DNA of 64,000 nt from Escherichia coli (GTDB lineage: Bacteria > Pseudomonadota > Gammaproteobacteria > Enterobacterales > Enterobacteriaceae). A program made the position numbers. Numbering within the stretch: the stretch's first letter is position 1; each line of letters begins with the position of its first letter. The stretch is taken from NCBI RefSeq assembly GCF_024502345.1, contig NZ_JALDNN010000001.1; one strand, 5' to 3'. Below, piece after piece: positions 6,801-12,800 of this stretch.

Positions 6801-9800
6801 TCCGGTGGCGCGCCACAGCGCACGAGCACCCGCCATATTACGACCATGAGTGGTGGTGGCGGAACGGTACTTAGGCATACTTTATTTACTCCCAGTGTCT
6901 GTCTCGTAAATGGGACGGTGCGTGCCGTCCCATTTTTTGTATTTATTGATTAACTTGATCTAACCAGCCCCATTTATCTTCGGTTTCGCCAGTGAAGAGG
7001 CCGAAGAAGGCTTGCTGAATGCGTTTGGTAACCGGGCCACAACGGCCTTCGCCAACCTGAATACCGTCTACGCTGCGCACTGGCGTGATTTCTGCCGCCG
7101 TACCGGACATAAACACTTCATCCGCCAGGTACAGGGATTCGCGCGACAGCACCTGCTCACGTACTTCAATTCCCAGCTCTTTCGCCAGTTTGATGATGGC
7201 ATCACGGGTAATACCCGGCAGCGCGGAGGAGGTGAACGGTGGGGTGAACAGCACACCATCTTTCACTTCAAACAGGTTTTCGCCTGCGCCTTCAGAGATA
7301 TAACCGTTCACATCCAGCGCGATACCTTCCTGATAACCGTGGCGGCGCGCTTCGCTACCCACCAGCAGGGAAGAGAGATAGTTACCACCGGCTTTTGCCG
7401 CGGTTGGGATGGTGTTTGGTGCTGCGCGGTTCCAGGAGGAAACCATCGCATCGATCCCCTGCTCCAGCGCTTCTGCGCCCAGATACGCTCCCCACGGGAA
7501 AGCGGCGATAATCACATCGGTTGAGTATCCCGCTGGCGGGTTTACACCCATGCCAACATCACCAACGAAGATCAGCGGACGGATATAGGCGCTGGTGAGA
7601 TTGTTTTTGCGGATCACGTCACGACAAGCTTCCATCAGCTCATCAATGCTCTGCGAAACCGGGAAGCGATAGATTTTGGCGGAGTCATGCAGACGCTGCA
7701 TATGCTCACGATGGCGGAATACAACCGGTCCTTTGTGCGAGTCGTAGCAACGGATGCCTTCAAAAACCGAGGTGCCATAGTGCAGCGCGTGCGACATCAC
7801 ATGCACCTTCGCGTCTTCCCAGCGAACCATCTCCCCATTGAACCAAATGTAATCAGCTTTCTTCGTGGTCATTTTTATATTCCTTTTGCGCTCAGGCGCG
7901 GATTTGTTGTGATGTGGTTGTGCTCTGGCAGATGGCAACGTGTGCGACGTCCACCAGTTTATTTAACTGACTAAACAGTAAGTCGACCGACCGTGGGCTG
8001 GCAACGGTCAATTCGATATTTATATTTTGTGCATCGCTGGCGGCGGCCATATTCATTGAGCAGACGTGGAAACCACGATGACGCACCACGCGTAAAACAC
8101 GTTCTAAGGTTTCCGGATTGAAGCGAGCCGATACATTGACCTGATGTTGCATCATGATAATTTCTCCAACATTTCTGAATTACTGGCGCCAGGCGGCACC
8201 AGCGGCCAGACGTTCTCAAGTTCGTCGATTGAGACATGAAGCAGGTATGGCCCATCACTGTTCAGCATGGTGTCGAGTGCCGCTTCAACCTGGTCTTTAC
8301 GGGTGATGTGTTGGCCAGGGATGCCGAAGGCGCTGGCTAACATGAGGAAATCGGGGTTATCAGTAAGGGTGGTTTCGCTGTATCGTTCCTGAAAAAACAG
8401 TTGCTGCCATTGTCGAACCATCCCTAACCGTTGGTTATCGAGTAAGACGATTTTCAACGGTAACTGCTTGCGTTTTACGGTGCCCAGCTCTTGCACATTC
8501 ATCATGAAAGAGCCGTCACCGGAGATACAGACAACGGTATCGTTCGGTCGCGCGACTTGTGCGCCAACCGCCGCCGGTAAACCAAAACCCATGGTACCTA
8601 AGCCGCTGGAGGTGATGAAATTTTCCGGGCGAGTGTGGGCGATGTGCTGCGCAGCCCACATCTGGTGCTGCCCCACATCTGTGGTCACGACGCAATCCGC
8701 AGGTTTACGATCCGACAGTTGTTTTAACAACAACGGCGCGTAGATAGCGTCACCGGGATGGTCGTAACGCCAGGAATGTTCATCACGCAGCTGCGCGCAG
8801 TGTTGCTGCCAGTCATTGATATTTAACGGCTGCTGTAATGCTGGTAACAGAGCATTTAAATCACCTTGTAATGCCACATGTGCCTGACGCAGCTTGTTCA
8901 TTTCTGCCGGGTCGATATCCATATGGATAACACTGGCGTGTGGCGCGAAGGTGTTCAGTTTGCCGGTCACCCGGTCATCAAAACGTGCACCCACGGCGAT
9001 CAGCAAGTCGCACTCCTGCACCGCGAAGTTCGCCGCTTTGGTGCCGTGCATTCCCAGCATGCCCAGATAGTACGGATAATCTGCTTCAACTGCGCCCAGC
9101 CCTTTCAGCGTGCAGGTGGCAGGCATTTTTGTGGTAGCGAGAAATTCTCGTAAAGCAGGAACTGCCTGCGCCATACCCACGCCACCACCAACGTACAGCA
9201 TCGGTTTTTGCGCTTTTGCCAGCATCTGGCGCGCTTGCTCAACTTCGGCATGGGGGAAAGTCACTTCGTTTTCAACGGTGGTGAACCACGGTTCCAGATC
9301 GCCGCTGGCTAACTGGATATCTTTTGGGATATCGACCAGAACCGGACCAGGACGACCTGAGCTGGCAACGTCGAATGCTGCAGCCATGATGCGCGGCAAC
9401 TCTTCCAGCGACTGCACCAGGAAGCTGTGTTTGGTACAGGCTAACGACAATCCCAGGACATCCACTTCCTGAAATGCGTCAGTGCCGATAAACGGTGCGG
9501 ACACTTGACCGGTGATGGCAACAACGGGGATGGAATCTAACAGTGCGTCCGCAAGCCCGGTTATCAGGTTGGTTGCGCCCGGACCAGACGTGGCGATACA
9601 TACGCCAGTTTTGCCAGTAGCACGGGCATAACCGATAGCCGCCATTGCCGCACCCTGCTCATGTCGGCACAGCAAGTGCTCCACGCCGCCGTCATACAAT
9701 GCATCGTAAACCGGCATAATTGCGCCACCCGGATAACCGAAAACGGTGTTCACACCCTGTGCCCGCAACGCATGTACCACCCACTGTGCGCCATTCATAG

Positions 9801-12800
9801 TTAGTTCCCCGTCCTGAATCTTGAGAAACAGAATTTTGTGCTGTTATTCATTGTCTGCTCCTCAGTTATGTTTTTAAGGTCAAAAAAAACCCCCGGACCT
9901 TTCGGTGCGGGGGTCTTAGTTCGTTAAGGCTTGATCTCTAAGCCTTTCCTCGTCCAAGTGCAGCCCCGCACGGTGGGATAATAATCACCACCACGCTAAT
10001 CACGACCAGGCTAATCACTCGTAGAAGGGCTGTCATTTTGTCTTTTCTTGCATCTTGTTCGAAGGAATGCCTAAAGAGTTACCATAGATTTTGCGAATAG
10101 CACAAGATATTTTTTGGCCGATTTTTATGATGACTTTAATAATTTCAATAGAAATTGTTGTTTTTTAAAAAGAAAATAGTGAGTGAAAAAAATTCAATTT
10201 CAGTATAAATGTTGTTCCCTTCCTCGTAGTTCATCCTTTGTCCGCTGCATTTTTGCGAGCATCATTCCACCGCCAGAACAACTCAACTTCACTTGCACAA
10301 ATAAACAGGAATCAGCCACTAAAATTCACGAATTAGCGGGCTACAGCAGCGATATCTTATGCACATAATGGTGACTCAAGGAGGGCTTATGTCACTGTCA
10401 ATTGTTCATACCCGCGCAGCCCTGGGAGTAAATGCGCCCCCGATCACTGTTGAGGTACATATCAGTAAAGGTCTACCCGGCTTAACGATGGTGGGCTTAC
10501 CAGAAACAACTGTAAAAGAAGCTCGCGATCGCGTGCGCAGCGCCATTATCAATAGCGGATATGAATATCCGGCGAAAAAAATCACCATCAACCTTGCTCC
10601 AGCCGATCTACCAAAAGAAGGGGGACGATATGATTTACCTATCGCCATTGCGTTGCTGGCGGCCTCAGAACAGCTTACAGCCAATAAGTTAGATGAATAT
10701 GAATTAGTCGGAGAACTGGCTCTTACAGGCGCTCTGCGTGGCGTTCCCGGCGCAATCTCCAGTGCAACTGAAGCTATTAAGTCGGGCAGAAAAATTATCG
10801 TCGCGAAAGATAACGAAGATGAAGTGGGGCTAATTAACGGTGAAGGATGCCTGATAGCCGATCATCTGCAGGCTGTCTGTGCGTTTCTGGAAGGTAAGCA
10901 CACTCTCGAACGCCCGAAACCAACTGATGCAGTATCCCGGGCGCTACAACATGATCTCAGTGATGTTGTCGGTCAGGAGCAAGGAAAGCGAGGACTGGAA
11001 ATTACCGCCGCTGGTGGGCACAACCTTTTACTGATTGGACCGCCGGGAACAGGTAAAACAATGCTCGCCAGCCGTATTAATGGCCTGTTGCCAGATTTAA
11101 GCAATGAAGAGGCACTGGAGAGCGCTGCGATATTAAGTCTGGTAAATGCTGAATCAGTACAAAAACAATGGCGGCAGCGCCCGTTCCGCTCACCTCATCA
11201 CAGTGCGTCGTTAACTGCGATGGTGGGCGGTGGTGCAATTCCAGGGCCAGGTGAAATTTCGCTGGCGCATAACGGCGTGCTTTTTCTTGATGAGTTACCT
11301 GAATTTGAACGGCGTACACTGGATGCCTTGCGAGAGCCGATTGAATCCGGGCAGATCCATCTTTCACGCACACGAGCAAAAATAACCTATCCAGCCCGTT
11401 TCCAGCTTGTCGCGGCGATGAATCCCAGCCCTACCGGACATTATCAGGGAAACCATAACCGCTGCACGCCAGAACAGACATTACGTTATCTCAACCGGCT
11501 CTCGGGGCCCTTTCTCGACCGCTTCGATCTCTCACTGGAGATCCCATTACCACCCCCCGGCATTTTGAGTAAAACGGTAGTGCCGGGAGAAAGCAGCACC
11601 ACCGTTAAACAACGTGTAATGGCTGCCAGAGAGCGCCAATTTAAGCGGCAGAATAAGTTGAACGCCTGGCTGGATAGTCCGGAAATACGCAAATTCTGCA
11701 AGCTTGAGAGCGAAGATGCGCAGTGGCTGGAAGAAACGCTGATCCATCTGGGGTTATCGATTCGTGCCTGGCAGCGGTTATTGAAAGTTGCACGAACCAT
11801 TGCTGATATTGATCAGTCTGACATTATCACACGTCAGCATTTGCAGGAGGCAGTTAGCTATCGTGCCATTGACCGTTTGCTCATCCATCTGCAAAAACTA
11901 CTGACATAAAAAAAGGGCATTTCGCCCTTTTTATTAATCGTCAGAATCGGTGTAGTCTTCAGCACCTTCAACCTGCGGTTTACCGCCGGAAAGGGTGTGA
12001 AAACGTTTTGGACGCTTAATACGCGTCATATACTTGGACCACACGCGTTCTGCTTCTGTCACTGGCTCACGTTCGCCACGGCATACTGCTACGAAGAGTT
12101 TCTCTTCCTCGGTAACCGGCTCGCGTTTGCCAAGATCCAACTCATTGAAGGCATAACCATGACGCTCAAGCAGTTGTGCCTCTTTGATGGTGAAATCACC
12201 ATGACGAGAGAATCCACGTGGATAATGTTTATTGTCGAAATATCGATTAGTCGTCGTAAAGCTTTCCGCCATCCTGCACGCTCCTAATTCTTTGACCGAG
12301 CTAGTTATGGCGCGGAGTATTAGTTACGCTTGACAGAGTGTAAAACAAAACATTTAAATCATAACGACAAATAATTTTGCGGAGAGTACTGTGGATACGG
12401 AATTGTTAAAAACTTTCCTGGAAGTTAGCCGAACGCGTCACTTTGGTCGAGCGGCTGAATCGCTCTATCTGACCCAGTCAGCAGTGAGCTTTCGAATCAG
12501 ACAACTGGAAAATCAACTGGGTGTGAACCTTTTCACCCGCCACAGAAACAATATCCGTTTAACCGCTGCCGGTGAAAAACTACTGCCTTATGCAGAAACG
12601 CTCATGAGCACCTGGCAGGCCGCCCGTAAGGAGGTGGCGCATACCTCACGACATAACGAGTTTTCTATCGGTGCCAGCGCCTCGTTGTGGGAATGTATGC
12701 TTAATCAGTGGCTGGGACGTTTGTATCAAAATCAGGATGCCCATACAGGCTTACAGTTCGAAGCGCGAATTGCCCAACGGCAGTCTCTGGTAAAACAGCT

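Follow-up and report, generated by a model that had tools for sequence, protein, structure and literature searches.

Acetohydroxyacid synthase II (AHAS II, or acetolactate synthase II) is a ThDP- and FAD-dependent enzyme that catalyses the first step shared by the isoleucine and valine pathways; valine feedback-inhibits isozymes I and III, but not AHAS II. In Escherichia coli K-12 the gene for its catalytic subunit, ilvG, carries a frameshift that is polar on ilvEDA. The ilv locus in the 64,000-nt stretch of E. coli DNA analysed here (the window) thus raises the question of whether its ilvG is of the intact or the K-12 type, and what follows from this for growth on valine. All genes of the operon lie on the minus strand.

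To answer the first part of this question, we re-translated ilvG, which occupies 8152..9798 (-) and starts with ATG. The gene is 1647 nt long, a multiple of three, and contains one stop codon only, at its end. Re-translation and the ORF listing agree on a 548-aa product, as the first-pass annotation had claimed without stating the strand, and no internal stop or frameshift was found within 8152-9798. The interval given there, 8152-10036, is longer than the gene and therefore covers ilvL, the attenuator and ilvX as well as ilvG. The encoded protein matched the AHAS II equivalog model NCBIfam NF006524 with 1074.3 bits (cutoff 738, E-value 0), residues 1-547 aligning to profile positions 1-547 of 548, and each of the other NCBIfam AHAS models scored below its own cutoff, with the generic TIGR00118 as the sole exception. 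The three ThDP-enzyme domains of Pfam were all matched (PF02776, PF00205 and PF02775, i.e. TPP_enzyme_N, M and C), the predicted catalytic Glu47 is present within RHEQGA, and the ThDP/Mg2+ motif, GDGSFMMN...LLDN, lies at residues 427-455. The identical 548-aa protein is already recorded on at least 1,000 contigs, under the label 'MULTISPECIES acetolactate synthase 2 catalytic subunit'. The listing of its cluster also contained 1041-aa CusA-like proteins, which are unrelated; we ascribed their presence to a peculiarity of the table searched, not to biology.

A global alignment to MG1655, combined with a codon view, located the K-12 frameshift that the first-pass annotation had pointed to. The lesion is a 2-bp deletion of an AT pair at ilvG nt 977-978, in codon 326; the pair is present in the window at 8821..8822 (-). 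Here the codons read CCG TTA AAT ATC AAT GAC (PLNIND), as opposed to CCG TTA AAT CAA TGA (PLNQ-stop) in K-12. The window junction is in frame, AAATATCAATGAC, and the deletion allele, AAATCAATGA with its stop at codon 328, is absent from the window; the exact words that the window junction has in common with the 44-mer of the K-12 junction do not exceed 24 nt. The stop placed by the alignment agrees with the TGA at nt 982-984 reported for K-12 ilvG (PMC8605374). We did not adopt the wording 'two separate base pair insertions' used for this lesion in PMC3032704: in our alignment two adjacent bases are absent from K-12 relative to every intact allele compared.

The alignment also bears on two ways in which an intact frame could mislead. 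Since ilvG revertants are easily selected (PMC8605374), the gene could in principle be a secondary revertant of the K-12-type frameshift, carried by an ilvG+ or 'ilvO' laboratory derivative of K-12, instead of an ancestral allele. However, the window has the exact ancestral AT and the PLNIND of wild strains, whereas the revertants described in the literature have lost a single base of the TGA. Moreover, window and K-12 differ by 26 nt and 4 aa across ilvG, with 98.4% nucleotide identity outside the lesion, and the window carries an lpf-O113 operon between glmS and pstS, where the best matches are natural isolates that also have lpf-O113. Judged by the alignment, a K-12 revertant origin is already refuted, and we give it virtually no probability. 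It is likewise scarcely credible that assembly or polishing has hidden an indel and that ilvG is intact in the consensus alone. Every single consensus sequence carries such a risk in general, and nothing specific points to it here; the site, AAATATCAAT, contains no long homopolymer, and the contigs that share all 548 residues are independent of one another.

How common each state of ilvG is was assessed by querying 5,426 complete E. coli genomes with junction sequences. The intact junction was found in at least 5,070 of them and the K-12 junction in 340, all sampled carriers of the latter being K-12 laboratory derivatives. Approximately 1,580 genomes were unmatched by the first intact-junction query; other ilvG lesions were considered as the cause and rejected, because queries with the B2-type and O157-type junctions account for these genomes, and both alleles are annotated as intact 1647-bp CDSs. 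Intact ilvG is the usual state of E. coli, from which the K-12 lineage departs; the finding is therefore an ordinary, already known one. The proposal that intact ilvG serves as a strain marker stands only in part: it does exclude the K-12 lineage, but, being the species norm, it says nothing beyond 'not K-12'. Since K-12 is the textbook exception to this norm, the locus neither opens nor closes a biological question.

The first-pass annotation had further described the leader peptide and attenuator as complete, and the leader region bears this out. ilvL (9938..10036, -) encodes a 32-aa leader peptide in which 15/32 codons specify Ile, Leu or Val; it is identical to K-12 IlvL and was detected by NCBIfam NF007744 (81.9 bits, cutoff 59). 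The attenuator is an intrinsic terminator at 9882..9915 (-), a G+C-rich hairpin followed by U8, with the sequence GACCCCCGCACCGAAAGGTCCGGGGG + T8 (9915..9882) identical to that of K-12. Hairpin and U8 were present in both the MFE and the centroid fold, the z-score of the leader being -4.3. The entire region was recognised as the ilv leader / 5' UTR cis-regulatory RNA RF02744 (Rev39_5p_UTR) at 9818..10107 (-), scoring 158.8 bits (gathering score 88) over the full model (1-300). The matches of both ilvG and its leader are thus far beyond chance. Over the 238 nt from the ilvL ATG to the ilvG ATG a single base differs from K-12, at 9864, downstream of the U-run. The interval between attenuator and ilvG contains ilvX (9801..9851, -), a 16-aa peptide ORF identical to K-12 IlvX; other E. 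coli have it annotated at the same position. A simple terminator scan of the minus strand did not report the attenuator; we set this result aside because both the thermodynamic fold and Rfam detect the terminator.

In this type of attenuator an alternative antiterminator pairing responds to ribosome stalling. As the K-12 leader that was studied by experiment has the identical sequence, we have taken this pairing from established knowledge. Stalling of ribosomes at the Ile/Leu/Val-rich codons of ilvL would keep the terminator hairpin upstream of ilvG from forming, i.e. control would be exerted by transcription attenuation.

Upstream of the leader, the ilvL-yifB intergenic region (10037..10358, -) holds the operon promoter or promoters; a simple promoter scan identified one weak promoter-like site on the minus strand. 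The region differs from K-12 by 9 SNPs, and the core promoter region is among the parts affected; four of the SNPs fall in the approximately 65 nt that precede the ilvL ATG. These four SNPs are one of two observations compatible with a gene that is intact but yields an inactive or poorly expressed AHAS II, leaving the strain valine-sensitive. The other is a missense candidate, Glu140Ala: IlvG of the window has Ala140, but the residue is acidic in all the others compared, namely Glu in the alleles of K-12, O157:H7, a urine isolate and E. albertii, and Asp in E. coli IlvB. We nevertheless consider such a loss of activity or expression very unlikely. Many natural E. coli genomes match the 322-bp region upstream of ilvL at 100% identity, and 510 match it at 99% or more. 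As for the protein, the 55-mer encoding Ala140 was found in at least 523/5,426 complete genomes of human, animal, soil and water origin, O104:H4 among them; besides, the exact protein recurs on the many contigs mentioned above, its catalytic Glu47 and ThDP motif are kept, and its NCBIfam score is far over the cutoff. Relative to the window, the O157:H7 allele differs by 4 aa and that of the urine isolate by 9 aa. It is highly improbable, though conceivable, that the Ala140 (and Ser342) IlvG of this B1-like lineage would alter the kinetics of AHAS II or its interaction with IlvM compared to the Glu140 alleles studied to date or, alternatively, that the point of interest would be an intact ilv operon in a niche-restricted clone decaying through IS1 (lpf, bgl); what points to these two ideas is the polymorphism and the local IS1 events.

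The genes downstream of ilvG are intact as well. The start codon of ilvM (7892..8155, -) overlaps the ilvG TGA in an ATGA; its 87-aa product, the AHAS II small subunit, is identical to that of K-12 and matched NCBIfam NF008362 (133.9 bits, cutoff 68). It is followed by ilvE (6943..7872, -), which encodes a 309-aa branched-chain amino-acid aminotransferase identical to K-12 IlvE, by ilvD (5028..6878, -; dihydroxy-acid dehydratase, 616 aa) and by ilvA (3481..5025, -; threonine deaminase, 514 aa). In tblastn searches K-12 IlvD and IlvA were aligned to the latter two at full length, with 99.7% and 99.6% identity, respectively.

Elsewhere the window displays gene decay, namely IS1 insertions, a frameshift in lpfA and a bgl deletion. 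Searches for exact protein matches to lineage-specific products (the lpfA fragments, an IS1-truncated usher and LpfD) retrieved the same lineage, at 99.99-100% identity, from the NCBI draft GCA_024502245.1 and from gut metagenome assemblies. The IS1 copies and pseudogenes prompted consideration of a Shigella origin, but the exact matches to these products are assigned to E. coli in their sources. Given this local decay, defects beyond the window are possible in the strain; ilvBN and ilvIH lie outside the window.

Taken together, these results lead us to regard the locus, with a probability of about 0.9, as the ordinary ancestral ilvLXGMEDA operon of non-K-12 E. coli, for which the literature would predict an active AHAS II and growth on valine. 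In this operon ilvG and the translationally coupled ilvM together encode acetolactate/acetohydroxyacid synthase II. Because the ilvG frame is intact, an active enzyme, growth on minimal medium with valine and freedom from K-12-type polarity on ilvEDA are all to be expected. The valine resistance put forward by the first-pass annotation should accordingly be read as an expectation transferred from other strains. MG1655 with a restored ilvG frame is able to grow in 1 mg/ml valine, unlike its parent (PMC8605374); ilvG is intact in B strains, where it confers valine resistance (PMC3446290), and in the W, B and Crooks strains (PMC3032704). In urine, the sole isozyme active in CFT073 is ALS II, and MG1655 was rescued by reversion of the frameshift (bioRxiv 10.1101/2025.10.31.685768). 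In practical terms the genotype call places the window outside the K-12 lineage and leads us to expect, for this strain, tolerance of valine, expression of ilvEDA free of the K-12 polarity, and growth under conditions with more valine than isoleucine.

Compared to known systems, the locus is closest in kind to its counterparts in other E. coli. With the K-12 ilvG pseudogene (b4488) it shares the locus and the leader, and IlvL, IlvX, IlvM and IlvE are identical; unlike the window, K-12 has lost the 2 bp described above and its frame ends early. AHAS I is valine-sensitive and has IlvN as its partner. Its catalytic subunit IlvB (E. coli, PDB 6LPI) belongs to the same fold family and has the same domain order; the alignment covers residues 2-543 (E = 2.4e-161) and shows conservation of the catalytic Glu and of the ThDP motif. 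It is, however, a different isozyme; the window protein fits the AHAS II equivalog model. With the ilvG of non-K-12 E. coli (B/REL606, W, Crooks, CFT073 and O157:H7) the window has in common the 1647-bp gene, the order ilvL-ilvX-ilvG-ilvM-ilvE, the AT at the junction and the annotation 'acetolactate synthase 2 catalytic subunit'; for B and CFT073 both function and valine resistance are on record, the differences from the window being restricted throughout to allelic polymorphisms, such as Ala140/Ser342 in the window for Glu140/Ala342.

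On the minus strand of the window, the six-frame ORF list contains a single long ORF of 548 aa with an ATG start at 9798 (8152..9798), corresponding to ilvG, which encodes the catalytic subunit of acetohydroxyacid synthase (AHAS) II. Independent re-translation yielded 1647 nt, divisible by 3, with a terminal stop only, and the first-pass annotation was therefore correct in describing an uninterrupted 548-aa frame. Upstream of ilvG and on the same strand lie the 32-aa ilvL ORF (MTALLRVISLVVISVVVIIIPPCGAALGRGKA, 9938..10036), the attenuator hairpin followed by U8 (9915..9882) and the 16-codon ilvX (9801..9851), while the ilvG TGA overlaps the ilvM ATG (ATGA), as it does in K-12. 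The Rfam family RF02744 spans the leader (9818..10107, 158.8 bits), the fold of the leader RNA stands well above shuffled controls (z = -4.3), and the MFE and centroid structures both contain the terminator hairpin. A consensus scan of the minus strand returned one weak promoter-like site only. The interval first proposed, 8152-10036, exactly covers ilvL, the attenuator, ilvX and ilvG; its extent stands, but the minus strand of all these features had been left unstated. The leader peptide and attenuator were said to be complete, and this holds as well, with IlvL being identical to its K-12 counterpart.

For comparison with K-12, we aligned MG1655 positions 3,948,000-3,958,000 globally to the window. 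In the MG1655 annotation ilvG is a 1645-bp pseudogene, and the gene has only one indel, where K-12 lacks the two bases at window 8822-8821 (ilvG nt 977-978, codon 326). Where the window reads CCG TTA AAT ATC AAT GAC (PLNIND), K-12 reads CCG TTA AAT CAA TGA (PLNQ, then stop), with the stop falling at codon 328. This position agrees with the premature TGA reported at nt 982-984 (PMC8605374), and the frameshift previously ascribed to K-12 is thus located as a 2-bp deletion. In the E. coli W genome paper the lesion of K-12 is given as 'two separate base pair insertions' (PMC3032704), wording that is not adopted here, since two adjacent bases present in every intact allele that we examined are missing from K-12 in our alignment. 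Putting the two bases back into K-12 restores a 548-aa frame, and the restored protein differs from that of the window at four residues (window first: A140E, S146C, T222A and P494H). IlvL, IlvX, IlvM and IlvE are identical between the window and K-12, and IlvD, IlvA and IlvY are full length with at least 99% identity. In the 238 nt running from the ilvL start codon to that of ilvG, the one difference from K-12 is at base 9864, downstream of the terminator U-run. In the 322-bp region upstream of ilvL, nine SNPs separate the window from K-12; this region is found at 100% identity in many natural isolates and at 99% or more in 510 genomes.

The 1885-bp interval was found at 95% identity or more in 5,425 of 5,426 complete E. 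coli genomes. Alleles were told apart by megablast (exact 28-mer required) with short queries that had the lesion at their centre; since the longest exact word common to the K-12 and intact junctions is 24 nt, each query matches its own allele only. The K-12 junction, with the 2-bp deletion, was present in 340 genomes (6.3%), whereas intact junctions were of the window type in 3,505, the B2 type in 1,237 and the exact O157 type in 328. No genome can fall into two of these intact sets: any 28-mer drawn from a 46-mer takes in query positions 19-28, so that a B2-type match excludes the other two intact queries, and the window-type query shares no 28-mer with the O157 type because of two SNPs in the latter. 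Thus, at least 5,070 of the 5,426 genomes (93%) carry an intact junction, and about 15 carry something else. All 40 of the K-12-junction genomes sampled were K-12 laboratory derivatives or O16:H48, including MG1655, DH5-alpha, JM109, HB101, MC4100 and J53, and an intact 1647-bp ilvG is annotated in distant lineages, namely a urine isolate and O157:H7. Taken together, the junction counts and these annotations show that intact ilvG is the rule and K-12 the exception. In NCCP12480 (NZ_CP068680.1), which belongs to these roughly 15 genomes, only the first 59 nt of a 161-nt ilvG probe match, and the gene at the match is annotated 'thiamine pyrophosphate-binding protein | ilvA'; this suggests a natural, larger deletion joining ilvG to ilvA, which would be a rare loss of ilvG outside K-12.

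At the protein level, IlvG matches the NCBIfam AHAS II catalytic subunit equivalog along its whole length, at 1074.3 bits against a cutoff of 738, and IlvM and IlvL likewise exceed their own equivalog cutoffs. IlvG has three ThDP-enzyme domains (Pfam), Glu47 as the catalytic residue (RHEQGA) and, at residues 427-455, the cofactor motif GDG...DN. Its nearest solved structure is that of E. coli AHAS I (6LPI), to which residues 2-543 align. The IlvG cluster listing also contains 1041-aa CusA/CzcA-type Bacteroides proteins, one as 'representative', which likely reflect a table artefact rather than homology.

An open frame could still encode an inactive missense allele, or could itself be an artefact of assembly. 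The one unusual residue of IlvG is Ala140 (window 9380, ilvG codon 140), a position occupied by Glu in K-12, O157:H7, the urine isolate and E. albertii and by Asp in IlvB; codon 342 encodes Ser in the window as compared to Ala or Thr in most compared alleles. An allele-specific 55-mer centred on the Ala140 SNP was found in at least 523 of the 5,426 complete genomes, O104:H4 included, from people, livestock, wildlife, soil and water, which makes Ala140 a common polymorphism in nature. Moreover, the exact 548-aa protein occurs on at least 1,000 contigs as 'MULTISPECIES: acetolactate synthase 2 catalytic subunit [Enterobacteriaceae]'. The recurrence of both residue and protein leaves a missense defect without support, and that of the identical protein does the same for an assembly artefact. 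Reversion of a K-12 allele is excluded: the window carries the ancestral AT with no compensating 1-bp deletion, its ilvG differs from that of K-12 at 26 nt, and its background contains the lpf-O113 operon, which is also present in the best-matching natural isolates.

The last part of the window, with the long polar fimbria operon lpf-O113 and pstSCAB-phoU, is decayed in comparison with close relatives. In lpfA (48816-49389), which lies between glmS and pstS, a frameshift splits the 190-aa protein of relatives into 93-aa and 115-aa ORFs. Two identical, directly oriented copies of IS1 are present (52702-53469 and 59616-60383). The first, a simple insertion flanked by a target duplication of 8-9 bp (AACAAGGTG), lies at the 3′ end of the usher gene lpfC and gives a product of 837 aa instead of 840 aa. 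The second lies about 120 bp after phoU, its flanks lack a target duplication, and it is followed by an ORF at 60601..61266 that we take to be yieH; bglG/bglF and genes beyond, present in close relatives, are missing here, which suggests a deletion of the bgl region adjacent to IS1. The lineage with the lpfA frameshift also occurs at 99.99-100% identity in the NCBI draft GCA_024502245.1 and in several gut metagenome and Logan assemblies, whose contigs stop at IS1. In one metagenome contig of this lineage (ENA ERZ27265092), a block upstream of lpfA (83-9345) replaces the glmS position and has Pfam matches to helicase/EcoEI_R_C, SMC/AAA, N6 methylase (HsdM-like) and Methylase_S; it resembles a type I restriction-modification island that has inserted, presumably near the glmS-proximal attTn7 region.

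The wider gene order is the reverse of that in K-12: ilvC comes first, then the ilv operon and yifB, and then a complete minus-strand rrn operon (13326-18549: 16S, tRNA-Glu spacer, 23S, distal 5S, tRNA-Asp and tRNA-Trp), presumably the rrnC arrangement of K-12. A StyR-44 match (Rfam) lies in the rrn spacer at 16661-16769. We assume that the ORFs beyond are rbs, kup, ravA-viaA and asnA/asnC, which their sizes and order fit. Three matches to the DnaA box TTATNCACA fall within about 190 bp at 34366-34554 (seven in the whole window versus 1.9 expected by chance), between the asnC-side ORFs and a 629-aa ORF at 34722 that by position we take to be mnmG. This cluster is consistent with oriC, with mnmG and rsmG presumably occupying the stretch between it and atp. 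Past this region come the atp operon, glmU and glmS, the lpf-O113 fimbrial operon and pstSCAB-phoU; an STnc410 sRNA match (Rfam, 187.7 bits) lies on the minus strand at 44912-45069, between the atp operon and glmU.

Of the three AHAS isozymes of E. coli, valine inhibits I and III but not II, and K-12, lacking isozyme II, therefore starves for isoleucine when valine is supplied. Since ilvG is intact here and this biology has been well tested in other strains, we predict that the strain is valine-resistant. The first-pass observation of an intact ilvG is confirmed and its interpretation supported. As it had also held, the finding is no novelty, since this wild-type state of a textbook locus was already known; as a strain marker, however, intact ilvG says only 'not K-12'. 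The gene is likewise intact in strains W, B and Crooks (PMC3032704), and in B strains this accounts for growth on valine dipeptides (PMC3446290). MG1655 itself fails to grow at 0.1 mg/ml valine, whereas growth at 1 mg/ml is seen in derivatives whose ilvG frame has been restored (PMC8605374). In uropathogenic E. coli CFT073 growing in urine, acetolactate synthase (ALS) II is the sole active isozyme, and MG1655 is rescued for growth in urine when its frameshift is reverted (bioRxiv 10.1101/2025.10.31.685768).
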